From Candidatus Latescibacterota bacterium (lineage in GTDB: Bacteria > Latescibacterota > UBA2968): 64,000 bases of DNA. The stretch is from assembly GCA_965204745.1 (NCBI GenBank), contig OZ242010.1, forward strand, positions 3,584,001 through 3,648,000. The letters run 5' to 3'. Of the stretch, positions 1 to 59,053 are shown piece by piece. The position numbers and the translations under genes are program-made. The notes below the pieces were generated by a model. That model saw nothing but the letters and a program-made list of their open reading frames with translations. It made no database searches and was not told where the DNA came from. Position 1 is the stretch's first letter, and each line of letters begins with the position of its first letter.

Positions 1-12
1 GCGTTTATCCAT
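1..12 (-). CDS. 5' end (MDKR...) of a paralogous AAA-ATPase/PD-(D/E)XK gene running off the left edge
   Basis: 1-70 is a near copy of 3222-3292 (start codon, RBS and leader of the 1686-3233 gene); ATG at 12-10. Confidence 0.65.
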
Positions 13-205
13 CCTTTCCCCCTTCAAGAGCCGAATCTCGCGCCATCGGTCTTGGCGTGGCGGCGTTTTTCCGATTGCGCGGTTGTGTTTCCCGCTGATC
101 CATTTCTCTGCTCATATTGCAAGCGGTTAATGTGCCCAAGCCGAAGATACCACAATATATGCGGTCATGTATTTGGAGGGTGGTCATATCTACGGCTCGG
201 GGTTT

Positions 206-240
206 GCGTGTTGCAACTCTCACGCAGGTGCCACCTCGAA
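206..240. repeat. ~35-bp repeat, copy 1 of 3 (others 1616-1651, 1671-1706)
   Basis: GTTGCAACTCTCACGCAGRTGCCACCTCGAA; copy 3 is the 3' end of the AAA gene (FEVASA-stop). Confidence 0.9.
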
Positions 241-302
241 TTGCCTCTTGCCTCTTACCTCTTGCCTCTTACCTCTTGCTTCTTGCCTCTTGCCTCTCCC
301 CT
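241..302 (+). repeat. heptamer tandem array (CTTGCCT/CTTACCT/CTCCCCT family), interrupted by IS110 and continuing at 1598-1615
   Basis: visible 7-nt periodicity. Confidence 0.95.
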
Positions 303-318
303 CTTGTATCTTGGAAGT

Positions 319-515
319 AAGGGTTAATTAGGAGTTGCGCCCTCGTATCGAGATAAGCCATCTTGATGCCCGGCTCGGGGAAGGCCGGCCCCTCTTGAAG
401 GCGATGACCTTGTAGGTAAGATAGGCCCCCCGACCGCCGGGTCTATGCCGAAGAGTATCTAAGCCCCTTGAGGCTGCATATACAAGACCGGTAGACTTGG
501 CGTCAATGGTCGGGA
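319..515 (+). ncRNA. bridge RNA of IS110 copy 1 (target-binding loop ~371-436, donor-binding loop ~437-500); ends approximate
   Basis: guides CCCCTCT 389-395, AGGTAAG 414-420, AGAGTATCT 452-460 and ATACAAG 480-486 lie in two internal loops closed by stems; outer stem 358-370/499-510. Confidence 0.88.
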
Positions 516-571
516 CGCGACCCCGAGCGCGCACCAGATCCCTTACAACCCCCTCATCACAGGAGGCCCCC

Positions 572-1579
572 ATGTCGAAATCTCACCCCGCTTTTGCCGG
601 CATTGATGTCAGTGCCCGCACGTTGTCCGTTGCCCTGTCCAGACCCGGACAAGCTGTCATGCAAGCGACCTTTGCCAATGATCCCCAAGCCCATAAGCGG
701 TTGCTGAAGTGGCTCACGAAGGGCGGGCACATGGTCTCTGTGTGCCTCGAAGCGACCGGGCTTTACAGTTTGGGGGTGGCCTTGGCCTTGCATCGGCATC
801 GCCACACAAAGGTCATGGTCGTCAATCCCAAAGCGATGAGCAAGTACGCCCAAGCCTGCATGCAACGGGCGAAGACGGATGCGAAGGATGCGTTGTTGAT
901 CCTCGACTATGCCGAGCGCATGCCTTTTGTGCCTTGGCAAGCGCCGAGCGAGCAACGGCTTCAACTGCAAGCCCTCACCAGACGCATTGACCAACTCAAG
1001 CAGGAGATCATCCGCGAACAGAGCCGCAACCACGCGCAGAGCTACCACATCCGCAGCACACGTCTCATCGCACGCGATATTCAGGTGAATATTCGACACT
1101 TCAAACGCCGGATTGCATACTTGGAAAGCCAAGCCCTCGATCTCGTTTTGCACGATGAGCCCCTCAAGCGTGCCTACCAACGCCTCTGCTCGACGCCTGG
1201 CATCGCGCAAACGAGTGCCTTGCGGCTCTTGGCCGAGTTGACCCTTTTGCCAGAGGAGATGCAACCGCCCCAGTGGGTCGCACATGCAGGCCTGGATCCC
1301 AAACCCAAACAATCCGGAACCGCCAATCCACAAAGACGCATCTCGAAAACCGGGAATAAGTACCTCCGCCATGCCCTCTATATGCCTGCCTGGGTGGCCA
1401 TCAGACACGAAGGCCATGTCAAAGCCTTCTATGACCAACTCATCGCCCGCGGCAAGAAACCTTTGCAGGCTATCGTTGCGGTGATGCGAAAGTTGCTCCA
1501 TTCGATCTGGGGCATGTTGCGCCATGACCAAGATTTTGAGGGCGAAAAATTCTATCGAATCACCCCGAAAACCCCTTGA
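572..1579 (+). CDS. IS110-family transposase / bridge recombinase, 335 aa
   Basis: GIDVS, CLEATG, KTDAKDA (DEDD), KQSG serine loop, SKTGNKYLR, AVMRKL; RBS AGGAGG before ATG 572. Confidence 0.97.
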   Translation: MSKSHPAFAGIDVSARTLSVALSRPGQAVMQATFANDPQAHKRLLKWLTKGGHMVSVCLEATGLYSLGVALALHRHRHTKVMVVNPKAMSKYAQACMQRAKTDAKDALLILDYAERMPFVPWQAPSEQRLQLQALTRRIDQLKQEIIREQSRNHAQSYHIRSTRLIARDIQVNIRHFKRRIAYLESQALDLVLHDEPLKRAYQRLCSTPGIAQTSALRLLAELTLLPEEMQPPQWVAHAGLDPKPKQSGTANPQRRISKTGNKYLRHALYMPAWVAIRHEGHVKAFYDQLIARGKKPLQAIVAVMRKLLHSIWGMLRHDQDFEGEKFYRITPKTP

Positions 1580-1685
1580 CCTTTTAAGAGAGTATCTTGC
1601 CTCTTACCTCTTACCGCTGTGTTGCAACTCTCACGCAGATGCCACCTCGAATTGCCTCTTGCCTCTCCCCGCTGTATTGCAACTC

Positions 1686-3233
1686 TCACGCAGATGCCAC
1701 CTCGAAAGCCACCAAGTTGCGGGTCTTTTTGCTGAATGTCACCGCGATGAGATGAATCGGCAGGCCAGCGTCTCGATACTTGTCCGCGTAGTGCCGCGCT
1801 CGCAGTTGCGACAGGCCGATGCCCTCGGAGTCCGATTCGACCACTTTGAACTCGAACAAGTAGATGTTGTCGTTGAAACGCACCGCCATGTCCAAACGCC
1901 CGTGGCTGCTGCTGTCCTCTACGGTGATGTCTAGCCCCAGCGACGCAAAGTAGGAGTAGAACACACTGGCGTAGTAGCCTTCGTAGTCGGCGATATCGTT
2001 TTTCGTGTGCCACTGGTAGGGGATGCTGGCGAAGAATGCCTTGAACAGCGTCTCGAGGCCAGAAAAATCGTTGATGGACAGCAGTTTGTATAACTGGACG
2101 ATGTGCGCGGTCTGGGTGGACGCATTGTGTAGCAGGTGACGCAACAGGCTTTGGTTCAGGCTTTGGCGCACCTCTTGGTTGGGATACCCCAGTTGATAGA
2201 GGGGTTGCCCGACTAGGTCCTCCTCGTCCTGTATGGTCAGATAGCCGGTCTGAAACAACAGGGCTTCGGTAGCCATGTGGTCGATGTCAAAGGCCGACAG
2301 CAACTCGTCGGTGCCGATCATGCGCTCCAGATCAAAGGAACTGACTCTGCGTGCCATTAGGGTCTCGATGAGAAAGGTCGGCGTGGCGGTCTCGAACCAG
2401 TAGGCGCCGAACCGGCGGCGGCGAAAGAGCAACAACACATCAAAGGGGTTATAGACCCGCTCGTTCCCCAGCCAGTTGTAGCCATTGTACCAGCGGCGGA
2501 TTTCGTCGCGATCCAAGCCGGGAAGTTCCGGCGCAAACACCGCGTCCAGATCCGCGTCCGTGTACCCGCACAGTGCGGAGTAGCGCGGTTCGAGGGTGAT
2601 GTCGATGAGATTGTTGAGCCCAGAGAACAGGCTGACCTTGGAAAACTTGCTCACGCCGGTGAGGAACGCAAACTTGATATGTGCGTCGTTATCCTTGATC
2701 GTGGCGTATAGGCCGCGCAGAAAGTCGCGGTTGGCATGGGCGATTTCCGGCTCCTCAAGCGCGTCCAAAATCGGCTTGTCGTACTCGTCGATCAACACCA
2801 CAACCCGCTGTCCCGCACGCTCGTGCAATGCCTCGATCAGAAAGGCAAAACGCTCGGGGACTGTCGCGTACTCGGACTTCATGCCCGCCCGACGTTCCAC
2901 CGCGTCTAATTGTGCCATCAGATTCGCTTGTAGATAGCCCGGCTCTTTGAAGTTGCCGCTACCAAAACTCAGGCGCACCACCGGATAGCGAATCGACCAA
3001 TCCCAGTGGTCGTGGATGTCGAGCCCCTCAAACAGCGGCGCGTTGCCCTCGAACAATTCCTTCAGCGTGTCGAGAAACAGACTCTTGCCAAAGCGGCGCG
3101 GGCGCGAGAGGAAGTAGAGCTTGCCTTCATCGACCAACCGCTGTATGTAGGCGGTCTTATCGACATAGTAATGGTTCTGCTCGCGAATCTCGCGGAAGGT
3201 CTGAATGCCAATGGGCAGTTTGCGCTTATCCAT
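1686..3233 (-). CDS. AAA-ATPase-like protein with C-terminal PD-(D/E)XK nuclease domain
   Basis: KLPIGIQTF, SRPRRFGKS, LIDEYDKP, C-terminal GRLD...FEFK; RBS AAGGAGG. Confidence 0.93.
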   Translation of the reverse strand: MDKRKLPIGIQTFREIREQNHYYVDKTAYIQRLVDEGKLYFLSRPRRFGKSLFLDTLKELFEGNAPLFEGLDIHDHWDWSIRYPVVRLSFGSGNFKEPGYLQANLMAQLDAVERRAGMKSEYATVPERFAFLIEALHERAGQRVVVLIDEYDKPILDALEEPEIAHANRDFLRGLYATIKDNDAHIKFAFLTGVSKFSKVSLFSGLNNLIDITLEPRYSALCGYTDADLDAVFAPELPGLDRDEIRRWYNGYNWLGNERVYNPFDVLLLFRRRRFGAYWFETATPTFLIETLMARRVSSFDLERMIGTDELLSAFDIDHMATEALLFQTGYLTIQDEEDLVGQPLYQLGYPNQEVRQSLNQSLLRHLLHNASTQTAHIVQLYKLLSINDFSGLETLFKAFFASIPYQWHTKNDIADYEGYYASVFYSYFASLGLDITVEDSSSHGRLDMAVRFNDNIYLFEFKVVESDSEGIGLSQLRARHYADKYRDAGLPIHLIAVTFSKKTRNLVAFEVASA

Positions 3234-3435
3234 CCTTTCCTCCTTCAAGAGCCGAATCCCGCGCCAATCGGTCTTGGCGTGGCGGCGTTTTTTTCATTCT
3301 GCGTTTGCAAACAATATCGCCCCAACTATTGCTATGTTACTATATCGCGTCTGTTCTGACAAGGAGTAAGTCAGGGGTCAGCACATCCGCGCCAGAAAAA
3401 CCCCTCGCGATTTATCCTCTCATCGCAACGCTTAC

Positions 3436-3464
3436 TTGACGATTCGCCATTGACTGAGTATAAT
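3436..3464 (+). promoter_or_regulatory. sigma70-type promoter
   Basis: TTGACG-17 bp-TATAAT upstream of ORF 3611 and mod-res. Confidence 0.7.
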
Positions 3465-3610
3465 GGCTTAGCTACCACATTCAACTCGTTGCCCAGATCG
3501 CAGAGGGCGGAAATTAAAACGCATAGCAGAGGAGATAGACATGACTGGCAAAAAGGGACCCATTATGCGTCATCAAGCCTTAATCTCAGTGTTAATGAAA
3601 GGGATGGATT

Positions 3611-4132
3611 ATGACTGAAGCGAAACTCAAAGACACCCTGCGTTTGATGGTTCACCGCTATGGGTTTGAGCGGGTTGAACAATCTCTACATGAGATGCGT
3701 TCAGACCATCGACTCAAAAGCTCTAAGCAGGATAAAGTGCAATCGGTGTCGGGAACGGCGGCAAAGCCGAAAAAAAGGAAAGCAAAAGTGACCGCACCGA
3801 AATACGTGGCGAAAATGGAACTTTCTGCGGATCGGGAAGCCGCAGTCGTTGAGCTTGCGAAAAGGTTTGAGGACAAATGTTTTTTGCCAGCATTTGGCGA
3901 TATTAGAGAATTTTGCCAGATTTATCGCATTCCCGAACCGGCGTCCAAGTCTCGCGCCAGCGCCATCCCAAGAATTTTCAAGTTCCTAGCAACAATGGAA
4001 ATTGACGAACTCCAGAGAATCTTGGACAACGGGATGTTTTCCGGCCCGTCGCGGCTCGGGCCCATTGCGGACGCAATCCGGTACCACAGCCCGCGGAGAC
4101 AACCACAGAAGCCGATCAGCAAAACAACTTGA
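3611..4132 (+). CDS. hypothetical protein, 173 aa, directly upstream of type III mod
   Basis: clean ORF, lower GC, 8 nt before mod ATG. Confidence 0.7.
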   Translation: MTEAKLKDTLRLMVHRYGFERVEQSLHEMRSDHRLKSSKQDKVQSVSGTAAKPKKRKAKVTAPKYVAKMELSADREAAVVELAKRFEDKCFLPAFGDIREFCQIYRIPEPASKSRASAIPRIFKFLATMEIDELQRILDNGMFSGPSRLGPIADAIRYHSPRRQPQKPISKTT

Positions 4133-4140
4133 GGAAGCCC

Positions 4141-7100
4141 ATGACTGACATGACCTCATCTCGACCAAACAAAGTGCAACCTGCGCCCGGGGCAGGGGGA
4201 AAGCTCGACCGGTTGCGGGCGTTGTTGCGCGAGATGTTTCAACTCGACCGCGGCGATTTGGACTTTGGATTGTACCGGATCATGAACTTGAAGGCCGGCG
4301 AGATCGCGGCCTTTCTCGACGAGGATTTGTTGCCGCAGGTCAAGACCAAGTTGAATCTCACCAGCGAGGAGGAAATGGCCTCGCTCGAAGAAAACTTGGA
4401 TAACGCCCGCAAAGCGGCCCAAAAGTTGCGGGTCGATCCAGACACCTCGCCCTTGGTCCAAGAGTTGTACGCGCGGCTCGCGGAAATGCGGAAGGACGCG
4501 GCAGCCGAGGCCGATGTGTACAACCATCTCACCCATTTCTTCGCGCGGTATTACGCCGAGGGCGATTTCATCTCGCAGCGGCGTTACGCCAGCGGAGGGC
4601 ATGCGGCCTATCTGATCCCGTACGATGGCGAAGAAGTCAAGTTGCACTGGGCAAACGCAGAGCAGTATTACGTCAAAACGACCGAGAACTACGCGGCTTA
4701 TGCGTTCACAGTGGGGGCGGGCGACGCGAAAAAGCGCGTGCGCTTCGAGATCGCAACAGCGGATAACGAGAAGGACACTATCGCGGAACCGGCCGGCAAA
4801 CAGCGGCGGTTCGTGCTCGCAGGGGGGACGCGCGCCATTGCGGTCGACGAGGGCGATTTGATCGTGCGCTTCGCGCATCGGCCCCTAACAGACCGCGAAA
4901 AGAAGCGATGGGCGGGCAATGGGGTCAAGCAACAGGGGCGGATCAACGAGGCGATAGTTGCGCGCATCCTCAACGCGGTGACGCCGGACTGGCTGCCTTT
5001 GTTGGCCGCACCCGCGCCCACAGATGCCAATGGCGAGCGCACGGTGCTGGCAAAGCACGTCGAGCGTTATACGGCCAAGAATAGTTTTGACTATTTCATC
5101 CACGAGGATTTGGGCGGGTTTTTGCGCCGCGAGTTGGATTTGTACTTAAACTCGGAAGTGCTGAACTTGGACGATCTGGAACGAGGCGACGTCCTCCGCT
5201 TGGACAGGGCACTGGCGCGGGTGCGTGCAACGCGGTACATCGGCGGCAAGATCATCGACTTTTTGGCGCAGTTGGAGGCGTTTCAAAAGCAACTTTGGCT
5301 AAAGAAAAAGTTCGTGCTCGAGACACAGTGGTGCGTGACATTGGACCGCGTTCCAGACGCGCTATACGCGGAGATCGCCGCCAACACAGCGCAGTGCGCG
5401 GAATGGGTCGCGCTGTTCGCCGCCGATGAGATCGCGGGAGACCTGACCAATGGCAATACGACTTGGACCGACCCGCCGAGCGTGGCATTCCTCAAGGCCA
5501 ACCCCTATCTCGTGCTGGACACGCGACACTTTGACCGCGCGTTCAAGGACCGCCTGTTGACCGCGCTTTCCGATGCTGGCCCGCTAAGCGACCAGTTGGA
5601 CGGCCTGCTCATCCACGCCGAGAATTTTCAGGCGTTGAACCTGCTGCAAGCGCGGTATCAGGGGCAGGTGCAGTGCATTCACATCGATCCGCCATACAAC
5701 ACCCAAACGAGCGGCTTTATGTACAAGAACGGGTACCAGCACTCGAGTTGGCTCGCAATGATGCACAATCGCACAGAGGCCGGGATCGCACTGCTGAATG
5801 AGAAAGGGCATTTCCTGTGCCACATCGATGAAAATGAGTACGAAAAACTTTATATGCTGTTGGACTATATTGGGATTCCCGATGTCGGGACGATTGTTTG
5901 GGATAAGAGAAATCCCATGACTGGAGGCGGGGGAATCGCAACTCAGCATGAGTACATTGTTTGCAGGTCAAACTCGGATGATGCGATCCGGCTTCGGAAC
6001 GCCAACGTCAAATCTATCTTAAACAAAGCCAAAGAACTGGTGGACGAGCACGGTGGCGTGTCTGACGCGGCAAAAAGTGCATTTTCGAGTTGGGTATCAA
6101 AAAACGCCCGATTAACAGGGGGCGAAAGGGCATATCGCTATATTGACGAGGCTGAAAGGGTATATACAAGCGTGAGTTTGAGAGCACCAGAACCGAGAAC
6201 CGATCCAAAGTTTTTTGAGCCACTGATACACCCCTTGACCGGAAAACCCTGTGCAGTTCCACCTAATGGGTTTTCGCGTACGCCAGAGACACTCAAAGCA
6301 ATGGTTCGGCGCGGAGAAATTTTGTTTGGTTCCGATGAAACCACGCAACCTCGACAAAAGCGATTTCTCGAGGAAGGAACTGATCGGCAACTTTCCTCTG
6401 TGATTCAGGATGCCAAGAGAGGAAAAGCCGACCTCGATGGATTGGGCTTAGAGAACTTTCCCTATTGTCATTCGGTGTCCTTGTATGAAGAATTGTTGGG
6501 GGCTACGGCGCCTGACGCCAATGACATGGTGCTCGATTTCTTCGCCGGCTCTGGCACTACCGGGCATGCGGTCGTCAATCTCAACCGCGAGGATGGGGGG
6601 CGGCGCAAGTACGTTCTCGTGGAACTCGGCCACCATTTCGACACGGTGTTGTTGCCGCGCATGAAAAAGGTCGTCTATTCGCCGAATTGGAAGGATGGCA
6701 AGCCGGTGTCGCGCAATGGGATTACGCAACTGGTCAAGTACATCCGCTTGGAATCCTACGAAGATGCGATGGACAGTTTGGACATCGCGCCGCCATCAGC
6801 CGCACAAAAGGAGTTGCTGGCCGAAAATCCCGCGCTGGCCGAGGATTATCGGTTGCGCTACATGCTCGGCGTAGAGACGGCTGGCAGCGCGTCTTTGCTG
6901 GGCGAGGCGTTTGCCGATCCGTTTGCGTACACGCTCTCGGTCGTGCGCGATGGGGGGCGCAGCGAAGTCCCGGTCGATTTGCCCGAGACCTTCAATTTTT
7001 TGCTCGGCTTGCGCGTGGCGTCCCACCGGCAAATCGATGGCGTGCTCGCTATCGCGGGCACAGACGCCGAGCGCCGCGACTGCCTGATCCTCTGGCGCGA

Positions 7101-7293
7101 TTTAGACGCCATGGATCACGCCGCGCTAGACGCTTGGTTTGACCGCAACCGCGACCAATTCTCCGAATCGCTGGACGTCATCTACGTCAATGGCGACCAC
7201 ACCCTAAACGCCATGCGACCGCCGGGCGCGTCTTGGACCGCCGAGACCATCGAGCCTGTTTTTCGAGACCTGATGTTCATGGGAGAATCGTAA
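4141..7293 (+). CDS. mod: type III R-M methyltransferase (Mod), long form
   Basis: DLDFGLYRIMN N-terminus, HIDPPYN, DFFAGSGTT; stop overlaps res start (TAATG). Confidence 0.93.
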   Translation: MTDMTSSRPNKVQPAPGAGGKLDRLRALLREMFQLDRGDLDFGLYRIMNLKAGEIAAFLDEDLLPQVKTKLNLTSEEEMASLEENLDNARKAAQKLRVDPDTSPLVQELYARLAEMRKDAAAEADVYNHLTHFFARYYAEGDFISQRRYASGGHAAYLIPYDGEEVKLHWANAEQYYVKTTENYAAYAFTVGAGDAKKRVRFEIATADNEKDTIAEPAGKQRRFVLAGGTRAIAVDEGDLIVRFAHRPLTDREKKRWAGNGVKQQGRINEAIVARILNAVTPDWLPLLAAPAPTDANGERTVLAKHVERYTAKNSFDYFIHEDLGGFLRRELDLYLNSEVLNLDDLERGDVLRLDRALARVRATRYIGGKIIDFLAQLEAFQKQLWLKKKFVLETQWCVTLDRVPDALYAEIAANTAQCAEWVALFAADEIAGDLTNGNTTWTDPPSVAFLKANPYLVLDTRHFDRAFKDRLLTALSDAGPLSDQLDGLLIHAENFQALNLLQARYQGQVQCIHIDPPYNTQTSGFMYKNGYQHSSWLAMMHNRTEAGIALLNEKGHFLCHIDENEYEKLYMLLDYIGIPDVGTIVWDKRNPMTGGGGIATQHEYIVCRSNSDDAIRLRNANVKSILNKAKELVDEHGGVSDAAKSAFSSWVSKNARLTGGERAYRYIDEAERVYTSVSLRAPEPRTDPKFFEPLIHPLTGKPCAVPPNGFSRTPETLKAMVRRGEILFGSDETTQPRQKRFLEEGTDRQLSSVIQDAKRGKADLDGLGLENFPYCHSVSLYEELLGATAPDANDMVLDFFAGSGTTGHAVVNLNREDGGRRKYVLVELGHHFDTVLLPRMKKVVYSPNWKDGKPVSRNGITQLVKYIRLESYEDAMDSLDIAPPSAAQKELLAENPALAEDYRLRYMLGVETAGSASLLGEAFADPFAYTLSVVRDGGRSEVPVDLPETFNFLLGLRVASHRQIDGVLAIAGTDAERRDCLILWRDLDAMDHAALDAWFDRNRDQFSESLDVIYVNGDHTLNAMRPPGASWTAETIEPVFRDLMFMGES

Positions 7294-10200
7294 TGCCATC
7301 GCGCCAACGCCGCAGGGGAACCGCGCCGCTCCAAACCCGTCTCGCGCTCCATCGCTTTATCTGCCGAGAGTTTGGCTATGACGACATGGGCGCGATGCTC
7401 GAGAGAACGCGCTATGCCCAAGGAACGCACGCCTCGGGCCGGGAGAGCGACTACGCCCAATCCCTGTACCCGCATCCGGCAAATGCCCGCGTACCTGCGG
7501 ATCAATTCGCCGACTACGACGCCAATATCGCCACGCACAGCAACAAGCTGCGAATCACAGAGGAACACGGGCGCACGTGGAAACCCCACCAATACCTCGC
7601 CCTGTTGTTCACCGAACACTACTTGCGCCGGTATTTCGACGACCCCGAAGCCCTGTGCGCGGACCTCAACCGGGAAAAGGCCATGTATCGCCCGACCTGG
7701 GACATGCCGGATTACGAAGCGGACGACCTGCACACGCTCGCCTTTCAAAGCGCGACCGGATCCGGGAAGACGCTCCTCATGCACGCCAACATCTTGCAAT
7801 ACCGGCATTATCTCAATCGCGCGGGCAGGCGGTTAAACAACATCGTACTGGTCACGCCAAACGAGCAACTGTCCATGCAACACGAGCGCGAGATGCGACA
7901 AAGCGGGTTGCGGGCGCGGCTGTTTTCCAGTGAGGCGCGTTCCGATTTGCTCGCGCCGGTGGAAATTATCGACTTGAACAAGTTGGCAGAGAAGAAGGGG
8001 GTGAAGCGCGTTGCCGTGGCGGATTTTGGCGACGACAATCTCGTGCTGGTCGATGAAGGGCATCTGGGCGCGTCTGGCAAGGTTTGGCGCGAACGCCGCC
8101 GGGAGTTGGCGAGCGGGGGCTTTGCGTTTGAATACTCGGCGACCTTCAACCAAGTGGCGGGCCGAGATGCGGATTTGCTCGACGCTTATGGCAAGTGCCT
8201 GTTGTTCGACTACGCGTACCGCCGGTTCTACGCGGACGGGTACGGCAAGGACTACGCGATTTTGAACCTGCCGGGCGGGGTGAAGGACGAGAACAGCGAT
8301 ATGTACTTGCTCGGCTGCTTGCTGACCTTTTACCAGCAATGCCGCATCTATCGGGACAAGGGCGCGCTGTGGAAGGCGTTTAACCCGGCCAAGCCCCTGT
8401 GGGTGTTCTTGGGCAAGACCGTGATCGGATCGAGCAAGGCGGATCGAGCGACCCGCTCCGATGTGGTCCGCATCCTGACCTTTCTCGGCTGGGTGCTCGC
8501 CCACGCCGACATGGTGCGGCCCATGATCGACCGCTTGTTGGGCGGGCAATCGGGCTTGATGGACGACGCGGGCCGCGATTATTTTGCGGGCCGGTTTTCC
8601 CACCTGCCGCGCGGGGAAGACCTGTACGCGGATTTGTGCGAGACCTTGTTCCACGGGCCGGGGCGGTTGTCCGTGGCCTATCTGACCGCTGCCGAGGGCG
8701 AATTGCACCTCCGCACCGCAGACAACGATCCCTTTGGCGTGGTCAATGTCGGAGATTCGACCAAGCTCTACGGGTTGCTCGCGGATAATCCCAATCCTGA
8801 TTTCGACGTCGAGCGGGAGATGGGCTTTGCAACGCGCCTGTTCGCCCATGTGGATCGCCCGGATTCGACCGTGAACATCGTCATTGGCGCGCGGCGTTTT
8901 ATCGCGGGGTGGAACTCATGGCGCGTGAGCACGATGGGGCTGATGCACGTCGGGGTGCGCGAAGGGCCGGAAATCATCCAAATGTTCGGGCGCGGCGTGC
9001 GCCTCAAGGGCTATGCCATGAGCTTGAAGCGGCACAGGGAAACCGGGGTGATGCCGCCCGGGAACAGCGCGGAATTGGCAGAACTGGAAAAGCTGTACAT
9101 CTTTGGGTTGCGCGCCAACTACATGCAGACGTTTCGGGAGTTGCTCGCAAAAGAGGGGATGGGCATCGAGCGAGAGACCTTTCGCTTGCCCATCACTTGG
9201 AATTTTGCCAAGAAGACGGATTTGAAGCTGATCCGCCTCAAGGAAGATCGGCAATACGACCTTTCCGATGAACGGCCCCGTTTACCCGGGCCGGACGATG
9301 AGGACCGCCCGGTTGTGGTGCTGGATCTGTACTCGCGGCTTCAATCCGTCGCATCCAGTGACCACGCGGCCCAAGGGGGAACGCCAAAACAGAAGGTTAG
9401 CCTCGCGCCCTACGCTATGTTTTTTAACGCGGGGCGCATTTACGAGCGCGTGTTGCGGCGCAAGCGACAAAAGGGCTGGCAAAATCTGGTCATCGTGCGG
9501 GGGACCGTGGCGCGCCTCTTGCAAAGCGATGCGTGGTACGAACTCTATCTGCCGCAGGATCGACGCCCTGCCATGGCGTTTGAGCAGGTGCGCGACTTGG
9601 AGGATATCGCCGTCGATCTGATCGCGGAATACGCCGATGTGTTTTACCGCAGGCAGCGCAGGCGTTGGGAACACGGCGAGATCGAGGTCGTCACCCTAAC
9701 CGAGGATGATCCGAACAATGCCGCGACCTACGAACTGTCCGTCGATGCGACCGAGGCGCAGTTGGTCAAGGATGCACGCGATCTGGCGGACGCGATTGGG
9801 GAAGGCCGGGGGCCGGATTTGAAATACTGGTACCGCGAGTTGAAGATCGGCACCATCCAGGCAAACGCCCACGCCTATCGCCCGCTGCTCTACGCGGAAA
9901 AGGAGCGCGTCATCGCGGTTCAACCCGTTCCCTTAGACGAGCACGAAAGGCGCGTTGTCGAAGAACTAGAAGTACTCGCCCGGAACCGCGATCCCTGTTT
10001 GCACGGCAAGGAGTTGTTTTTGATCCGCAATCTGACGCAGGGCCGGGGCGTGTCGTTTTTTGATGATTTTGGTTATTACCCGGATTTCATCGTCTGGTTG
10101 AAAGACGATGTTCTCCAGCACGTCTTGTTTCTCGATCCAAAGGGATTGAGCCGGTTTGGCGAACGAGAACGCAGAAAGGTGTTGTTGCACCGCGAGATCG

Positions 10201-10391
10201 CACAGGTCGAAAAACGGGTGCGAGACGAAGACCCGAATTTGCGATTGCGCGCTTTTGTGTTGTCCGTTACGCCGCCCACAAAAATTGGCGATAGCGGGCG
10301 TTCTGCCCCTGACTGGAAAGCAGATGGGGTTTATTTTTTGGACGAGCGCGATTGTTTGAAGCAGGTTATCGAACACGCGCTCGGCGAGTGA
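7293..10391 (+). CDS. res: type III R-M restriction subunit (Res)
   Basis: ATGSGKT, DEGH, QMFGRGVR helicase motifs; C-terminal YPDF...DPKG nuclease motif. Confidence 0.92.
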   Translation: MPSRQRRRGTAPLQTRLALHRFICREFGYDDMGAMLERTRYAQGTHASGRESDYAQSLYPHPANARVPADQFADYDANIATHSNKLRITEEHGRTWKPHQYLALLFTEHYLRRYFDDPEALCADLNREKAMYRPTWDMPDYEADDLHTLAFQSATGSGKTLLMHANILQYRHYLNRAGRRLNNIVLVTPNEQLSMQHEREMRQSGLRARLFSSEARSDLLAPVEIIDLNKLAEKKGVKRVAVADFGDDNLVLVDEGHLGASGKVWRERRRELASGGFAFEYSATFNQVAGRDADLLDAYGKCLLFDYAYRRFYADGYGKDYAILNLPGGVKDENSDMYLLGCLLTFYQQCRIYRDKGALWKAFNPAKPLWVFLGKTVIGSSKADRATRSDVVRILTFLGWVLAHADMVRPMIDRLLGGQSGLMDDAGRDYFAGRFSHLPRGEDLYADLCETLFHGPGRLSVAYLTAAEGELHLRTADNDPFGVVNVGDSTKLYGLLADNPNPDFDVEREMGFATRLFAHVDRPDSTVNIVIGARRFIAGWNSWRVSTMGLMHVGVREGPEIIQMFGRGVRLKGYAMSLKRHRETGVMPPGNSAELAELEKLYIFGLRANYMQTFRELLAKEGMGIERETFRLPITWNFAKKTDLKLIRLKEDRQYDLSDERPRLPGPDDEDRPVVVLDLYSRLQSVASSDHAAQGGTPKQKVSLAPYAMFFNAGRIYERVLRRKRQKGWQNLVIVRGTVARLLQSDAWYELYLPQDRRPAMAFEQVRDLEDIAVDLIAEYADVFYRRQRRRWEHGEIEVVTLTEDDPNNAATYELSVDATEAQLVKDARDLADAIGEGRGPDLKYWYRELKIGTIQANAHAYRPLLYAEKERVIAVQPVPLDEHERRVVEELEVLARNRDPCLHGKELFLIRNLTQGRGVSFFDDFGYYPDFIVWLKDDVLQHVLFLDPKGLSRFGERERRKVLLHREIAQVEKRVRDEDPNLRLRAFVLSVTPPTKIGDSGRSAPDWKADGVYFLDERDCLKQVIEHALGE

Positions 10392-11598: not shown

Positions 11599-11615
11599 AG
11601 ATACTCTCTTAAAGG

Positions 11616-12623
11616 TCAAGGGGATTGCGGGGCGATTCGATAGAATTTCTCGCCCTCAAAATCTTGGTCATGCCGCAACATGCCCCAGATTGAATGGAGC
11701 AACTTTCGCATCACCGCAACGATAGCCTGCAAAGGTTTCTTGCCGCGGGCAATGAGTTGGTCATAGAAGGCTTTGACATGGACTTCGTGTCTGATGGCCA
11801 CCCAGGCAGGCATATAGAGGGCATGGCGGAGGTACTTATTCCCGGTTTTCGAGATGCGTCTTTGTGGGTTGGCGGTTCCGGATTGTTTGGGTTTGGGATC
11901 CAGGCCTGCATGTGCGACCCACTGGGGCGGTTGCATCTCCTCAGGCAAAAGGGTCAACTCGGCCAAGAGCCGCAAGGCGCTCGTTTGTGCGATGCCAGGC
12001 GTCGAGCAGAGGCGTTGGTAGGCGCGCTTGAGGGTCTCATCGTGCAAAACGAGATCGAGGGCTTGGTCTTCCAAGTATGCAATCCGGCGTTTGAGGTGTC
12101 GAATATTCACCTGAATATCGCGTGCGATGCGCCGTGTGCTCAGGATGTGGTAGCTTTGCGCGTGGTTGCGGCTCTGTTCACTGATGATCACCTGCTTGAG
12201 TTGGTCAATGCGTCTGGTGAGGGCTTGCAGTTGAAGCCGTTGCTCACTCGGCGCTTGCCAAGGCACAAACGGCATGCGCTCGGCATAATCCATGATCAAC
12301 AACGCATCCTTCGCATCCGTCTTGGCTCGTTGCATGCGGGCTTGACCGTACTTGCTCATCGCTTTGGGATTGACGACCATGACCTTTGTGTGGCGATGCC
12401 GATGCAAGGCCAAGGCCACCCCCAAGCTGTAAAGCCCGGTCGCTTCGAGGCACACAGAGACCATGTGCCCGCCCTTGGTGAGCCACTTCAGCAACCGCTT
12501 ATGGGCTTGGGGATCATTGGCAAAGGTCGCTTGCATGACAGCTTGTCCGGGTCTGGACAGGGCAACAGACAACGTGCGGGCACTGACATCAATGCCGGCG
12601 AAAGCGGGTTGAGATTTCGACAT
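11616..12623 (-). CDS. IS110-family transposase / bridge recombinase, 335 aa
   Basis: DEDD motifs and QSG intact. Confidence 0.97.
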   Translation of the reverse strand: MSKSQPAFAGIDVSARTLSVALSRPGQAVMQATFANDPQAHKRLLKWLTKGGHMVSVCLEATGLYSLGVALALHRHRHTKVMVVNPKAMSKYGQARMQRAKTDAKDALLIMDYAERMPFVPWQAPSEQRLQLQALTRRIDQLKQVIISEQSRNHAQSYHILSTRRIARDIQVNIRHLKRRIAYLEDQALDLVLHDETLKRAYQRLCSTPGIAQTSALRLLAELTLLPEEMQPPQWVAHAGLDPKPKQSGTANPQRRISKTGNKYLRHALYMPAWVAIRHEVHVKAFYDQLIARGKKPLQAIVAVMRKLLHSIWGMLRHDQDFEGEKFYRIAPQSP

Positions 12624-12677
12624 GGGGGCCTCCTGTGATGAGGGGTTGTAAGGGGTCTGGTGTGCGCTCGAGTTCGA

Positions 12678-12874
12678 TCCCGACCATTGACGCCAAGTCT
12701 ACCGGTCTTGTATATGCAGCCTCAAGGGACTTAGATACTCTTCGGCATAGACCCGGCGGTCGGGGGGCCTATCTTACCTACAAGGTCATCGCCTTCAAGA
12801 GGGGCCGGCCTTCCCCGAGCCGGGCATCAAGATGGCTTATCTCGATACGAGGGCGCAACTCCTAATTAACCCTT
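12678..12874 (-). ncRNA. bridge RNA of IS110 copy 2
   Basis: same four guide segments as copy 1. Confidence 0.86.
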
Positions 12875-12890
12875 ACTTCCAAGATACAAG

Positions 12891-12992
12891 AGGGGAGACG
12901 CAAGAGGGGAGAGGGGTGGCCTTCTCACGTCTTGCCTCTCACCTCTCACTTTTTTGGGGTGGCCTTCTCACGTCTTGCCTCTCACCTCTCAC
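12891..12992. repeat. inverted heptamer arrays around GGGGTGGCC, with a duplicated ~37-bp unit
   Basis: GGGGTGGCCTTCTCACGTCTTGCCTCTCACCTCTCAC occurs twice; related unit at 19841-19863. Confidence 0.85.
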
Positions 12993-13112
12993 CTTTTTGG
13001 GCGATGTCCCCGTGCTCGCCTGAAGACGCGAAAAGGCGAAAGGCAACTGCTGATAAACACAGATGAACGCGAATGGCGAGGTATCCGTTCAACCACTTAT
13101 TTGAGGTATATT

Positions 13113-14391: not shown

Positions 14392-17300
14392 ATGATCCTG
14401 AAGCATTTCTTTCGCACCTCCGGCCTTTCTCCCGCGCAACAACGCAGCCTGATCCAGTCGGCAAAACAATGCGTCTCCGCGCGCATTCGAGACATCCAAA
14501 CCGAAGCCTGTTTCAACATCCAAACCCGCTCCCCCCTCTCTGCGGAACAGCAAACCCGCCTCGCGTATTTGCTCTCTGAAACCTTTGAACCGGACCAGTT
14601 TGCAGAACAGTCCTTCCTCGCCGGCGACGGGACGCTCCTCGAAGTGGGGCCGCGCCTGAATTTTTCCACGGCTTGGTCGACCAATGCCGTGGCGATCTGC
14701 CACGCCTGTGGCCTCGCGCAAGTGGTGCGCGTGGAGCGGTCGCGGCGGTATCTCATCACCCCCACCCTCGCCCCACAACAACAACGCGCGTTTTTGGCAT
14801 TGGTCCACGACCGCATGACCGAATGCCCGTATCCCGAACCCCTCGCGTCTTTTGAATCCGATGCAAAACCCGAACCCGTGTTCGAGATTCCCCTCATCCA
14901 AGAAGGCCGCCGCGCATTGGAGGAAATCAACCGCGCGATGGGCCTCGCGTTCGACGATTGGGACCTCGATTATTATGCGGACCTCTTCCTCGATCAAATC
15001 AGACGCAATCCCACGCAAGTCGAATGTTTTGACATCGCCCAGTCCAACAGCGAACACTGCCGGCACTGGTTCTTCAAAGGTCGCCTCATCATCGACGACG
15101 AGGCAATGCCCGAGCACCTCATCGCCCTCATTCAATCGCCCCTCAAAGCCAATCCCAACAACAGCACCATCGCCTTTCGGGACAATTCCAGCGCGATTCG
15201 CGGGTATCCGATTCGCACCCTCATCCCCACGCGCATTGGCAAGCCGTCGGCATTCGCGCTCTTTGACCGTGCGTACGACATCCTCTTCACCGCAGAAACG
15301 CACAACTTCCCCTCGGGCGTGGCGCCGTTTCCCGGCGCGGAAACCGGCACGGGCGGGCGCATCCGAGACGTGCAGGCCACGGGCCGAGGCGCGCTCGTCA
15401 TCGCGGGCACCGCCGCGTACTGTGTGGGCAATTTGTACGTGCCGGGCTATGACCTGCCGTGGGAAAACCCCGAATTTCAGTACCCGGACAATCTCGCGTC
15501 CCCGCTGCAAATCGCCATCGAAGCCAGCAATGGCGCGTCTGATTACGGCAACAAATTCGGCGAACCCCTCATCCAAGGCTACGTGCGATCCTACGGCGCG
15601 CGCCTGCCCAATGGCGAGCGCAGGGAATGGCTCAAGCCCATCATGTTCAGCGGCGGCATCGGGCAGATGGATGCGCGACACGCGGAAAAAGGCGCGCCTG
15701 CGCCCGAGATGCTCGTCGCCAAACTCGGCGGCCCGGCCTATCGCATCGGCATGGGCGGGGGCGCCGCGTCGAGCATGGTGCAGGGCGAAAACGAAGCCGA
15801 ACTCGATTTCAACGCCGTGCAACGCGGCGATGCCGAAATGGAACAAAAGCTCAACCGCGTGATTCGCGCGTGCGTGGAACTCGGGGATCAAAATCCCATC
15901 GTCAGCATCCACGACCAAGGCGCCGGGGGCAACTGCAATGTGATCAAGGAACTCGTCAGTCCGGCAGGCGCGCGCATCGACATTCGCGCCATCCCCGTGG
16001 GCGACGAGACCCTGTCCGCGCTCGAAATTTGGGGCGCGGAATACCAGGAAAACAACGCCTTGCTCATCCGCCCGGATCACGCCCAACGCTTTGACGCCCT
16101 CTGCGAACGCGAAAAAGTTCCCCATGCGTACATCGGCAAAGTGACCGGCGACGGGCGCGTGGTGGTCTATGACCGCCGGGACGACAGCGTGCCTGTCGAC
16201 TTCGACCTCGACCACGTCTTGGGCGAGATGCCGCAAAAGCCCTTCAAACTCGACCGGTTTCCCATCCGCACGGAACCGCTCGTTTTGCCCGAAGACCTGA
16301 CCGTCGCAGACGCCCTCGACCGCGTGGCGCGCCTCGTCTCCGTCGGGTCCAAGCGATTTCTCGCCAGCAAAGTGGATCGCAGCGTGACCGGCCTCGTCGC
16401 GCAACAGCAATGCGCGGGGCCTTTGCAACTGACCGTGGCGAATGTGGCCGTCGTGGCGCAAAGCCACTTTGGGCTGACCGGCGCGGCGACCGCGATTGGC
16501 GAACAACCGATCAAGGGCCTCATCGACCCGGGCGCGATGGCGCGCATGTGCGCGGGCGAGATGCTCACCAATATCGCGTGGGCGCGCATCAGCGCGATAG
16601 AAGACATCAAGTGCTCGGGCAACTGGATGTGGGCCGCCAAATTGCCCGGCGAAGGCGCCGCGCTCTACGACGCGGCCCACGCGCTCACGGATATTTTGCG
16701 CGCGTGGGGCATGGGCATTGACGGGGGCAAAGACAGCTTGTCGATGGCCGCGATTGCGCCGGGTGATGAGGGCGATGAAACCGTCAAAGCCCCCGGCGCG
16801 CTCGTCCTGTCCGGCTACGTCACCTGTCCGGATATCACGCAGACCGTCACCCCGGATTTGAAATATCCCGACGATGGCGTCATTTTGTACGTGGACCTCG
16901 GCGCGGACGAGCACCGCTTGGGCGGTTCCGCGCTCGCGCACGTCTATGGGCAAATAGGCGATGAGTCGCCCGACGTGGATGATCCGGCACGGGTCAAACG
17001 CGCCATAGCCGCGCTGCAATCCTGCATTGCAAACCACGCGATAGCCGCGGGTCACGACCGCAGCGACGGTGGCTTGATCACCGCGCTTTTGGAAATGGCG
17101 TATGCCGGCAACTGCGGCATCGAGATCGACCTGCACACCCGCGCCGATGCAATAGCCGCGCTCTTTTCCGAAGAACTCGGCTTGGTCTTTGAAGTGCAGT
17201 CGCAAAACCTGAAGACCGTGCGCGACATTTTTGACCGCGCCAACGCGCCCATTCAAACCCTGGGCAAAACGACCGCGAGGCCGGAGATTCGCATTTCCGT

Positions 17301-18297
17301 CAACGCGCAGCGCGTGCTCGCCGCGCCCATGCCCGCGCTGCGCGATGTGTGGGAAGCCACGAGTTTTCAACTCGAACGCCTGCAAACCAATCCGACGTGT
17401 GTCGCGCGAGAAGAAGCGTCTCTCGCCACGCGCACAGGCCCCCAATACACCGCGCCCTTCGCGCCGAAGCCCACGCCGCCTGCGGTGCTCAACGCCCGTT
17501 GCAAACCCAAAGTCGCGATTGTGCGCGAAGAGGGCAGCAATGGCGACCGCGAAATGACCTCGGCATTTTTCGCCGCGGGGTTTGAACCCTGGGATCTAAC
17601 GACGACCGATCTCCTCTCTGGCGCGATCACACTCGACCGGTTTCGCGGGCTCGCGTTTGTCGGCGGGTTCAGCTATGCAGACGTGCTCGATTCGGCCAAG
17701 GGCTGGGCCGGCGCGATCCGCTTCAATGATGGCCTGCGCGCACAGTTCGACGCGTTTTACCATCGCGCCGATACGTTCAGCTTGGGGGTGTGCAATGGTT
17801 GCCAACTGATGGCCCTGCTCGGCTGGGTGCCGTTCCCGGGGCTTGCGGATGTGGATCAACCCCGGTTTGTTCGCAACGAGTCCGGGCGGTTTGAATCCCG
17901 GTTTTCCACCGTGCAAATACAGGACGGCCCGGCGATCATGTTCAACAACATGGCCGGCGCGTCCCTGGGCTTATGGGTCGCACACGGCGAGGGCCGCGCA
18001 TTTTTCCCCCACGCCGACATCCTCTGCCGGGTCATTGCCGACAACCTCGCGCCCGCGCGCTATGTGGATGACGACAACGCCATCACCGAAGCCTATCCCT
18101 TCAACCCCAATGGATCGCCGCACGGCATCGCGGCCCTGTGCTCGCCCAATGGCCGCCACCTCGCCATGATGCCCCATCCAGAACGCGCCTTCCTCAAATG
18201 GCAATGGCCCTACATGCCCCTGCACTGGAAACGCGATCTCAAAGCGTCTCCATGGCTTCAAATGTTCCAAAACGCCCGTGCGTGGTGCGGGAAGTAA
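14392..18297 (+). CDS. purL: phosphoribosylformylglycinamidine synthase (large single-chain type)
   Basis: NSEHCRHWFF, ETHNFP, GGKDSLSM, GVCNGCQ, MMPHPER. Confidence 0.98.
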   Translation: MILKHFFRTSGLSPAQQRSLIQSAKQCVSARIRDIQTEACFNIQTRSPLSAEQQTRLAYLLSETFEPDQFAEQSFLAGDGTLLEVGPRLNFSTAWSTNAVAICHACGLAQVVRVERSRRYLITPTLAPQQQRAFLALVHDRMTECPYPEPLASFESDAKPEPVFEIPLIQEGRRALEEINRAMGLAFDDWDLDYYADLFLDQIRRNPTQVECFDIAQSNSEHCRHWFFKGRLIIDDEAMPEHLIALIQSPLKANPNNSTIAFRDNSSAIRGYPIRTLIPTRIGKPSAFALFDRAYDILFTAETHNFPSGVAPFPGAETGTGGRIRDVQATGRGALVIAGTAAYCVGNLYVPGYDLPWENPEFQYPDNLASPLQIAIEASNGASDYGNKFGEPLIQGYVRSYGARLPNGERREWLKPIMFSGGIGQMDARHAEKGAPAPEMLVAKLGGPAYRIGMGGGAASSMVQGENEAELDFNAVQRGDAEMEQKLNRVIRACVELGDQNPIVSIHDQGAGGNCNVIKELVSPAGARIDIRAIPVGDETLSALEIWGAEYQENNALLIRPDHAQRFDALCEREKVPHAYIGKVTGDGRVVVYDRRDDSVPVDFDLDHVLGEMPQKPFKLDRFPIRTEPLVLPEDLTVADALDRVARLVSVGSKRFLASKVDRSVTGLVAQQQCAGPLQLTVANVAVVAQSHFGLTGAATAIGEQPIKGLIDPGAMARMCAGEMLTNIAWARISAIEDIKCSGNWMWAAKLPGEGAALYDAAHALTDILRAWGMGIDGGKDSLSMAAIAPGDEGDETVKAPGALVLSGYVTCPDITQTVTPDLKYPDDGVILYVDLGADEHRLGGSALAHVYGQIGDESPDVDDPARVKRAIAALQSCIANHAIAAGHDRSDGGLITALLEMAYAGNCGIEIDLHTRADAIAALFSEELGLVFEVQSQNLKTVRDIFDRANAPIQTLGKTTARPEIRISVNAQRVLAAPMPALRDVWEATSFQLERLQTNPTCVAREEASLATRTGPQYTAPFAPKPTPPAVLNARCKPKVAIVREEGSNGDREMTSAFFAAGFEPWDLTTTDLLSGAITLDRFRGLAFVGGFSYADVLDSAKGWAGAIRFNDGLRAQFDAFYHRADTFSLGVCNGCQLMALLGWVPFPGLADVDQPRFVRNESGRFESRFSTVQIQDGPAIMFNNMAGASLGLWVAHGEGRAFFPHADILCRVIADNLAPARYVDDDNAITEAYPFNPNGSPHGIAALCSPNGRHLAMMPHPERAFLKWQWPYMPLHWKRDLKASPWLQMFQNARAWCGK

Positions 18298-18370: not shown

Positions 18371-18387
18371 AGATACTCTCTTAAAGG

Positions 18388-19395: not shown

Positions 19396-19449
19396 GGGGG
19401 CCTCCTGTGATGAGGGGTTGTAAGGGGTCTGGTGTGCGCTCGAGTTCGA

Positions 19450-19646
19450 TCCCGACCATTGACGCCAAGTCTACCGGTCTTGTATATGCAGCCTCAAGGG
19501 ACTTAGATACTCTTCGGCATAGACCCGGCGGTCGGGGGGCCTATCTTACCTACAAGGTCATCGCCTTCAAGAGGGGCCGGCCTTCCCCGAGCCGGGCATC
19601 AAGATGGCTTATCTCGATACGAGGGCGCAACTCCTAATTAACCCTT
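19450..19646 (-). ncRNA. bridge RNA of IS110 copy 3
   Basis: same four guide segments. Confidence 0.86.
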
Positions 19647-19662
19647 ACTTCCAAGATACAAG

Positions 19663-32685: not shown

Positions 32686-32716
32686 AGTAGTCAGTTGTCA
32701 GTAGTCAGTTGTCAGT
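32686..32716. repeat. second heptamer family GTCAGTA/GTCAGTT (also ~22016, 28273, 40369, 41566, 54078, 60702, 60793)
   Basis: direct reading. Confidence 0.88.
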
Positions 32717-34115: not shown

Positions 34116-34340
34116 CTCGCCTTTTATGCCTTTTGTGTTTTTGTGTTTTTGTGGCTAAACTTCCATCTCGCCTTTTATGCCTTTTGTGTTTTTGTGTTTT
34201 TGTGTTTTTGTGGCTAAACTTCCATCTCGCCTTTTATGCCTTTTGTGTTTTTGTGTTTTTGTGGCTAAACTTCCATCTCGCCTTTTATGCCTTTTATGCC
34301 TTTTGTGTTTTTGTGGCTAAATGCCCATCTCGCCTTTTGC
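34116..34340. repeat. tandem repeat, four ~50-60 bp units
   Basis: CTCGCCTTTTATGCC(TTTTGTGTT)nTTTGTGGCTAAACTTCCAT. Confidence 0.92.
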
Positions 34341-41565: not shown

Positions 41566-41596
41566 ACTGACCACTGACAACTGACCACTGGCAACC

Positions 41597-52310: not shown

Positions 52311-52345
52311 CTCTGGCCCGCGATTCCGTATATTGATTTTCACAG

Positions 52346-52428
52346 TGGCCCGTGCGACTGGCGAATGAACGTGGAATTGACCACGGGGAAGCGCGGCCCT
52401 TTCAACCGATAGCCGCTCGCCTGGGCTT
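52346..52428 (+). promoter_or_regulatory. ZMP/ZTP (pfl) riboswitch
   Basis: GACTGGCGAA...GTGG-CCACGGGGAAGCG...CCGCTCGCCTGGGC upstream of glyA; TTGACT-16-TATATT just upstream. Confidence 0.88.
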
Positions 52429-52476
52429 CCATATTGCCCAGGCTATTTTTGTACCTGACCACAAAGGAGGAAATCC

Positions 52477-57226: not shown

Positions 57227-59053
<1,827 letters not shown>

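Follow-up and report, generated by a model that had tools for sequence, protein, structure and literature searches.

A Predicted Bridge-RNA Element of the IS110 Group Whose Target Loop Matches Heptamer-Array Junctions in a Latescibacterota Genome

Introduction

IS621 of Escherichia coli is an insertion sequence (IS) of the IS110 group that employs a bridge RNA (Durrant et al., 2024, PMC11208160; Hiraizumi et al., 2024, PMC11208158). The polarity of its loops with respect to the DNA strands has been confirmed structurally and its handshake guides have been defined (Hiraizumi et al., PMC11208158), and a promoter at the junction of its right end (RE) and left end (LE) has been described (Durrant et al., 2024, PMC11208160). 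ISPpu9 and ISPpu10 of Pseudomonas putida, which also belong to the IS110 family, are reported to be multi-copy elements confined to one repeated intergenic sequence, with palindromic repetitive extragenic palindromic (REP) or stem-loop targets. In this family, the bridge-RNA mechanism is already established, and so is the targeting of abundant intergenic repeats. Elements of the IS1111 group are also referred to as seekRNA elements. These share the protein family and the RNA-guided logic (Durrant et al., PMC11208160), but their RNA is described as lying in a long right end and their sub-terminal inverted repeats as longer.

Here we analyze an IS110-family element in a 64,000-nt stretch (the window; positions 3,584,001–3,648,000 of contig OZ242010.1) of a closed, single-contig Latescibacterota genome of 5,482,115 bp and 56.5% G+C, labeled G000 in comparisons. 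It is very probably an active, or very recently active, IS110-group IS that works like IS621 and carries a predicted RNA loop matching the junctions between units of a heptamer array, its best sites being saturated. No new mechanism is involved. Anatomy, matches between guides and sites, and the gradient in occupancy are read from sequence, whereas expression of the RNA, its binding to the recombinase, and its requirement in recombination are predicted by analogy with IS621.

The element shares with IS621 its pair of protein domains and its catalytic residues, a long left and a short right end, and the CT core. Its predicted left-end RNA likewise carries the target loop ahead of the donor loop, with a position-7 handshake base; a promoter would again be re-formed where RE and LE meet, and the element again favors an intergenic repeat that is abundant. 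It differs in that its target is a junction within a degenerate 7-nt tandem array, whereas that of IS621 is a REP palindrome, and in the presence of 52 copies with five co-resident guide types in one genome. In contrast to the ISPpu9/ISPpu10 targets, the sites here are mostly plain arrays without a nearby inverted arm, and, unlike in the IS1111 group, it is the left end that encodes the predicted RNA, the right end being only 18 nt long. Our literature search found no report of heptamer arrays as the target of an IS110 or bridge-RNA element, although the supplementary target tables of Durrant et al. lay outside that search and could contain one; where two IS110 preprints speak of a “tandem repeat”, other matters are meant.

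Results and Discussion

Structure and Copy Number of the Element

Three copies (A–C) lie within the window. The ends, flanks, and copies are as follows.

303–1597, + strand: copy A, IS110-family element of 1295 bp, with CT cores at 303–304 and 1596–1597 (three-copy alignment, blastn)
11599–12890, − strand: copy B, 96% subfamily, with target TCTCCCCT-CT-TGCCTCTT as in copy A (alignment and blastn)
18371–19662, − strand: copy C, 96% subfamily, 74 nt beyond the purL stop codon and convergent with recQ
241–302, + strand: left flank heptamer array of TTGCCTC-type units, with the left target TCTCCCCT at 295–302 (Tandem Repeats Finder, TRF)
303–571, + strand: left end, 269 nt of non-coding DNA with the predicted bridge RNA (estimated span about 320–530, both ends approximate)
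1598–1618, + strand: right flank of the interrupted array, with the right target TGCCT at 1598–1602

Copies A, B, and C align from end to end, with A approximately 96% identical to B and C. Copy A starts with CT-TGTATCTT and ends with GAGTAT-CT. An earlier note on this DNA had proposed that the three elements share one restored, CT-centered site, and the alignment bears this out, since the left flank reads TCTCCCCT-CT and the right flank CT-TGCCTCTT in all three. The left end (303–571) is far longer than the 18-nt right end (1580–1597), the arrangement that distinguishes the IS110 group.

A genome-wide blastn search with the element returned 77 high-scoring segment pairs, corresponding to 52 full-length copies (element positions 1–1295) and 25 partial pieces. 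All 52 start with CT-TG and end with GTAT-CT, and removal of the element together with one of the two terminal CTs leaves a continuous array site, i.e. the insertions are scarless and CT-centered. The full-length copies sum to 67,303 bp (1.2% of the genome). Their first 275 nt fall into ten versions, present in 34, 8, 3, and seven single copies; the 34 copies with an identical left end also encode an identical protein and are 99.5–100% identical overall, which fits a recent burst of activity.

Shared flanks could also reflect common descent if the copies had spread mostly by duplication or homologous recombination of larger blocks. In five copies of an 88–89% subfamily, the flanks resemble one another over 70 nt or more to either side, and recombination between copies could shuffle flanks. 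In the main subfamily, however, the flanks are mutually unrelated beyond about 12 nt although the 12-nt site is the same, the 34 copies with an identical left end lie in dissimilar contexts, and the site repeat also occurs without the element, as shown by 25 empty copies of CGCCT-CT-TACTT. We therefore regard spread by block duplication as very improbable and favor guided insertion at the shared site.

Predicted Bridge RNA

The left ends (positions 15–245) of 14 elements from ten genomes were aligned and folded with RNAalifold. The consensus contains 32 pairs, with 92.9% of cells paired and compensatory changes in 15 of the 32. None of 500 column shuffles reached the observed pairing and covariation, and sliding the partners by one to three columns lowered pairing to 25–49%. 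Covariation is found mainly in the closing helix and the donor-module stem (9/13 pairs of helix 5, in the donor-binding module, are compensatory), whereas both target-module stems barely vary. The covariation-backed fold thus predicts a left-end RNA with two stem-loops, each with a large internal loop, as is characteristic of the IS110 group. Its predicted parts, all on the + strand, are listed below.

373–379: 5′ strand of the closing helix, which encloses both loops; pairs with 516 and 523–528, with 4/6 pairs compensatory
516–528: 3′ strand of the closing helix (RNAalifold, pair counts)
383–427: target-binding module, with outer stem 383–386/424–427, 5′ loop 387–397, inner hairpin 398–411, and 3′ loop 412–423
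436–501: donor-binding module, with outer stem 436–450/489–501, 5′ loop 451–461, inner hairpin 462–475, and 3′ loop 476–488
389–395: left target guide CCCCUCU, with the same letters as the top strand of the left target plus core
414–420: right target guide AGGUAAG, the complement of CT-TACCT, and of CT-TGCCT via one U:G wobble
452–460: left donor guide AGAGUAUCU, equal to the right-end terminus plus core
480–486: right donor guide AUACAAG, the complement of the core plus left-end start, CT-TGTAT
421–422: handshake dinucleotide AU, complementary to donor positions 6–7 (AT of GTAT-CT), read against the IS621 scheme
487–488: handshake dinucleotide AC, of which A is complementary to target position 7 (T) and C is unpaired at position 6

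The first loop matches the target and the second matches the joined element ends. The corresponding DNA strings given in the earlier note are all present at their positions (CCCCTCT at 389–395, AGGTAAG at 414–420, AGAGTATCT at 452–460, and ATACAAG at 480–486). Guide polarity is as in IS621, with each loop's 5′ side matching for pairing with the bottom strand and the 3′ side with the top strand. The position-7 handshake fits both loops (A421 with donor T7, and A487 with target T7), whereas at position 6 a handshake pairing is available to the target loop alone (U422 with donor A6), C488 being without a partner. The covarying helix that encloses both modules (373–379 with 516 and 523–528) may set the element apart from IS621. 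A single-sequence minimum free energy fold of 303–571 (z = −2.26), in which the guide segments are partly paired together, was discarded in favor of the alignment-based structure.

Site Occupancy Follows Guide Match

The guide/target pairing that the earlier note proposed from three events is now supported by 52 copies with five guide types in this genome and by orthologues from nine further genomes. The main guide, with CCCCUCU/AGGUAAG loops, is carried by 45 copies, of which 41 have the left target CCCCT and 41 the right target TACCT (24) or TGCCT (17), well outside what chance would give. The numbers of these 45 insertions were compared with those of all matching genome sites, given below as left target / right target.

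CCCCT / TACCT (perfect match): 20/25 filled, 80%
CCCCT / TGCCT (one U:G wobble): 17/82 filled, 21%
TACCT / TACCT: 4/87 filled, 5%
CCCCT / CCCGT: 2/10 filled, 20%
CCCCT / TACTT: 1/5 filled, 20%
CCCCT / TGCCC: 1/2 filled, 50%
TGCCT / TGCCT: 0/241 filled, 0%
CCCGT / TACCT: 0/53 filled, 0%
TGCCT / TACCT: 0/48 filled, 0%
CCCCT / CCCCT: 0/45 filled, 0%
CCCCT / TGCGT: 0/38 filled, 0%
CGCCT / TACCT: 0/26 filled, 0%
CCCCT / TACGT: 0/18 filled, 0%
CACCT / TACCT: 0/17 filled, 0%

Perfect sites are filled significantly more often than wobble sites (20/25 versus 17/82, Fisher p = 1.2e-7). With its 52 insertions and several hundred near-cognate sites left unoccupied, this one closed genome constitutes a natural data set, from which an in vivo specificity profile can be read: 80% occupancy for a perfect match, 21% for one U:G wobble, 5% for two distal left-arm mismatches, and 0% for an internal mismatch. 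Such a profile of mismatches tolerated in nature, together with a diverged orthologue, may aid the design of bridge-RNA editors.

Guide Variants and Orthologues

Five guide types coexist in this genome, and seven of the 52 copies carry minority loops. The CGCCUCU/AAGUAAG type (four copies) is found at the left target CGCCT (three) or CACCT (one, via a G:T wobble) and at the right target TACTT (three) or TACCT (one). The single UCCCUCU/AGGUGAG copy lies at TCCCT-CT-CACCT, with a 7/7 match on both sides, and the UGCCUCU/AAGUAAG copy at 216675 lies at TACCT-CT-TACTT, with one G:T wobble.

Orthologues with 52–84% amino acid identity occur in nine other genomes (G082, G091, G128, G101, G120, G041, G097, G152, and G151); they carry other loop letters, which match their own flanks in the same geometry. 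For 17 guide types from ten genomes, the best 7-nt match on the left side averaged 6.12 for cognate (n = 17) and 3.98 for non-cognate combinations (n = 262), and on the right side 6.23 (n = 13) and 4.22 (n = 144), respectively. Matches were scored with a sliding 7-nt window and a non-cognate control, a fixed register having failed where the loop of an orthologue was shifted by one base. Locus L016 was left out of these counts, and rows with an unread right target were left out of the right-target means; by eye, the right flanks so omitted read CT-CACCT (G000, 1297034), CT-CACTT (L035), and CT-TTTCT (L002 and L005).

Among 21 genomes of the genus, the element is carried by three (G000, G082, and G091), which are mutually closest by PurL (91% and 91%, versus at most 84% for the rest). 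In most of 18 loci observed, the G091 element, with loops UCGCCUCU and GGGAG, occupies array junctions of the form C[GA]CCT-CT-CCCGT. The closest sister, that of G082 (81–84% amino acid identity), has loops UCCYCCU and AGAAAAG and lies at non-array sites, TCCYC-CT-TTTCT. These observations suggest that guide content follows the repeat landscape of the host, and the G082 element, with different loops in a non-heptamer site, supports the earlier description of the copies in G000 as retargeted. Reprogramming is thus visible in nature, both as five guide types on one donor loop and as two close sister genomes with different targets.

The change in target with the loop is also what distinguishes RNA guidance from a mechanism in which the recombinase protein alone, or the structure of the array DNA, reads the target and the loop matches are a by-product unused for guidance. 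Some sites do lie near inverted purine/pyrimidine arrays or a GGTGGCC motif and could form hairpins, an ISPpu10 preprint reports a target stem-loop as an additional layer of specificity, and the stems of the target-binding loop are nearly invariant among orthologues. Against a protein-only mechanism, the occupied site shifts with the loop letters in the five guide types and in the nine other genomes while the proteins are 52–100% identical, and a single A/G change in the right target takes occupancy from 80% to 21%, as expected for U:A versus U:G pairing. Against a role for DNA structure, many occupied sites have no nearby inverted array, purine-strand units being present upstream in about 12 of the 52 and two or more in about eight. 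Target reading without the RNA thus seems highly unlikely, and the evidence that the RNA loop would set the target is strong, albeit computational.

Several observations weigh against guidance of the IS621 type. Four of the 45 main-guide copies lie at the left target TACCT, which has two mismatches, and two at the right target CCCGT. The occupancy counts are not fully independent, because the copies are kin and array units may change after insertion. A 94.9% hybrid copy at 602780 carries UGCCUCU/AAGUAAG loops yet lies at TCCCT-CT-CACCT, the site of the UCCCUCU/AGGUGAG variant; possible explanations for this copy (L059, genome 602780–604074) are mobilization in trans and recombination between variants. 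Even with the core counted, the left guide matches over only 7 nt, compared with 8–9 nt reported for the family, to which IS621 belongs. Finally, the left end gave no Rfam match at the gathering score, with only chance-level matches (E ∼1–5) on 280–620; as no Rfam family was matched (E up to 10), the RNA assignment rests on the present alignment.

The Recombinase

The gene and its ribosome-binding site are as follows.

561–566, + strand: ribosome-binding site AGGAGG, 5 nt ahead of the ATG
572–1579, + strand: recombinase gene, 335 aa, with D12, E60, D103, and D106 (DEDD) and S248-G249

Both IS110 Pfam domains are present (PF01548, 1.2e-24; PF02371, 4.8e-20). The nearest solved structures are those of the ISCro4 transposase (Protein Data Bank [PDB] 9t56; E 7.6e-40, residues 7–326), the best-scoring homologue, which was compared by protein alignment only, and of the IS621 transposase (PDB 8wt6), to which the match is modest (phmmer E 5.8e-36, 127.6 bits, query residues 8–326); no other solved relatives were found. 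D12, E60, D103, D106, and S248-G249 align opposite residues 13, 62, 104, 107, and 243–244 of chain 8wt6_A, which, after correction for a two-residue offset in that chain, correspond to D11, E60, D102, D105, and S241-G242 of IS621. In IS621 the D11, E60, D102, D105, and S241 region forms the composite active site (Hiraizumi et al., 2024, PMC11208158). The 335-aa frame is intact in 51 of the 52 copies, that at genome 3890249 being frameshifted. The protein had been called compact, which it is not in relation to IS621, whose solved chain has 328 residues. An antisense open reading frame (ORF) of 324 aa (557–1531, − strand) overlaps the gene and is probably a by-product of G+C content.

A Junction Promoter and the Proposed Transposition Cycle

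Two promoter-like hexamers lie near opposite ends of the element.

307–312, + strand: −10-like hexamer TATCTT, part of the promoter predicted to be rebuilt at the circle junction
1576–1581, + strand: −35-like hexamer TTGACC of the right end, which overlaps with the stop codon (1577–1579)

When the ends are abutted, TTGACC and TATCTT are separated by 18 nt, or by 17 nt in the 96% subfamily. TTGA[CA]N followed by 17–18 nt and TATCTT, TATGTT, or TACCTT occurs, as a consensus match only, at 85 of 86 element sites in the genomes examined. A simple scan of the integrated copy found no promoter-like site upstream of the left end. The IS621-type layout put forward in the earlier note appears sound, as judged from the Pfam domains, aligned catalytic residues, long left and short right ends, CT core, two-loop RNA fold, handshake bases, and junction promoter.

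By analogy with IS621, on which every dynamic step proposed here depends (circle formation, transcription, pairing, and strand exchange), a copy would first be excised or copied into a circle, in which the joined right and left ends would create the TTGACC-N17/18-TATCTT promoter. This promoter would transcribe a bridge RNA of approximately 200 nt from the left end. Its first loop would pair with chromosomal CCCCT-CT-TACCT, CCCCUCU binding the bottom and AGGUAAG the top strand, and its second loop with the joined ends of the element, AGAGTAT-CT-TGTAT; the DEDD/Ser recombinase would then exchange strands at the common CT. Recent reports on excision, copy-and-paste transposition, and half-match recombination are compatible with the copy number and the few half-matched sites.

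The guide variants of this genome all have a common donor loop and common element ends, save for one left-donor-guide base in the 1297034 variant, so that the RNA of any variant could in principle move any copy. Six of the seven minority-variant copies, a small sample, lie at a site of their own type and not at that of the 45-copy majority. This would follow if each RNA were transcribed chiefly on the excised circle carrying its own sequence, as the junction promoter predicts. A caveat to such use of the guide in cis is that the five 88–89% subfamily copies share homologous flanks, and some may have been copied together with their surroundings.

Heptamer Arrays and Their Relation to the Element

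The targets are junctions within degenerate heptamer arrays composed of CTTGCCT, CTCACCT, CTCCCGT, CTTACCT, CTCCCCT, and other units, about ten such arrays lying within the window (TRF). CTTGCCT and CTTACCT, which the earlier note had described as common here, account for 539 and 242 array units, respectively. Four successive units of the pattern CTYNCST are matched 1283 times in G000 and 1196 times in G091, but only 0–20 times per genome in the remaining 19 of the genus, including three times in G082; reversed-pattern controls gave 0–1 matches in 20 of the 21 genomes and nine in G084. Abundance of heptamer arrays is thus confined to G000 and G091, the two genomes with array-targeting elements. 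The large expansion of (CTYNCST)n in G000 provides many near-identical landing sites, of which the best are saturated. Degenerate microsatellites, besides REP palindromes, can therefore host the IS110 family, and the arrays themselves (about 1300 pattern matches in two genomes and at most 20 in the others of the genus) are an unexplained host feature.

The coincidence of arrays and element raises the question of whether the element or its recombinase helps to create or expand the arrays, e.g. by recombination between CT-phased units. The array counts in G000 and G091 relative to the other 19 genomes are in favor of such a role, as is a preprint reporting that IS621 can recombine half-matched substrates. 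Conversely, 15 genomes of the genus in which no element was detected still hold a few arrays, which suggests that the repeat predates or is independent of the element, and a heptamer family that is not targeted, (CTGACNA)n, is also expanded in G000. We know of no mechanism by which IS110 recombination would add 7-nt units. Array formation by the element thus seems improbable, and use by the element of arrays that arose independently of it is the preferred explanation.

A further proposal, tentative and on balance doubtful, is that the element and the microsatellite are a co-evolving pair, in which depletion of the best sites, 80% full, selects new guides, and guide and cargo are coupled in cis. 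It draws on the five coexisting guide types and on the sister genome with few arrays, whose element would have moved to a different site; the fidelity of the variants would follow because the bridge RNA would be transcribed only from the excised circle that encodes it. In a bolder extension of this proposal, the recombinase would contribute to the at least 60-fold expansion of the arrays in the two array-targeting genomes.

Site contexts vary: some are plain arrays, others are arrays beside an inverted purine-strand arm or a GGTGGCC motif, and some adjoin (CTGACNA)n. In at least two cases, the insertion precedes a ribosome-binding site and start codon by about 20 nt. The interpretation of the arrays as a safe harbor is reasonable but tentative in view of these varied contexts and the insertions near start codons. 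The pyrimidine-rich arrays contain no stop codons and so yield spurious ORFs, because of which an ORF-based test of intergenic array location was dropped.

The second, unrelated heptamer family (CTGACAA/CTGACCA/CTGACTA)n is equally abundant, with 661, 519, and 487 units in arrays. It is found genome-wide and, in the window, at 41564–41595, 32686–32716, 54077–54107, and 60796–60823, and is often joined to CTYNCST arrays by a CTTGAGGAAC...GGTGGCC linker. The window contains other repeats. At 1597–1706 and 205–240, a GCTGTRTTGCAACTCTCACGCAGATGCCACCTCGAA-like repeat, about 35 nt long, is interleaved with short stretches of heptamers, a region in which TRF reports a 55-nt period with two copies at 92%. 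A 43-nt unit containing GGGGTGGCC, heptamers, and a T-run occurs twice at 12913–13001 (TRF); together with upstream purine-strand heptamers, these units could form a long hairpin followed by Ts, resembling a terminator. A 51/110-nt tandem repeat at 34116–34338 (TRF) is rich in TTTTGTGT and ends with GGCTAAACTTCC, and its GTGGCTAAACTTCC motif also borders arrays at several element sites elsewhere.

Element Fragments, Assembled Contigs, and Other Features of the Window

At genome 1121591–1124182, copies of the 99.9% and 96% subfamilies lie head to tail with only TACCT between their CT cores, one copy having inserted at a site partly built from the end of the other. Solo left-end fragments without the gene extend from element position 1 to positions between 61 and 384 (blastn), e.g. 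at genome 921770–922155 and 2972659–2972844, with further examples at 950644–950704, 2089406–2089468, and 4730100–4730171; those longer than about 230 nt would retain both RNA modules.

Parts of the stretch were found in 20 sequencing-run rows from eight studies, several of them labeled sponge or marine metagenome, and no RNA run was among those listed. Contigs assembled from four sequencing runs cover the element within window positions 1–3300. Four single-contig joints skip 1325–1383 nt between the flanking arrays (268>1652, 269>1595, 278>1655, and 299>1655); they were rejected as empty sites on account of the repeated array sequence and low depth or short sides, one of them also containing 39 other letters. 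No RE>LE circle junction was listed among the contig joints of the four runs over window 1–3300, which does not imply its absence. Downstream of purL, G091, G082, and G087 carry sequence without relation to that of G000, which precluded an empty-site comparison for copy C.

The purL gene (14392–18297, encoding FGAR amidotransferase) is flanked by copies B and C in the same orientation, and homologous recombination between these copies could delete or duplicate the 5.5-kb purL segment. An AAA-ATPase-like protein with a PD-(D/E)XK nuclease domain is encoded at 1686–3248 (− strand), followed by a 1054-aa protein with an N6/N4 DNA methylase domain (4129–7293, + strand) and a 1052-aa ORF without a Pfam match (7233–10391, + strand); this group (1686–10391) may be a restriction or defense locus. 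The window also contains ordinary riboswitches, namely a ZTP riboswitch (52344–52433, + strand) upstream of a serine hydroxymethyltransferase gene and two TPP riboswitches (56911–57006, − strand, and 57223–57312, + strand), one of which lies upstream of thiC.

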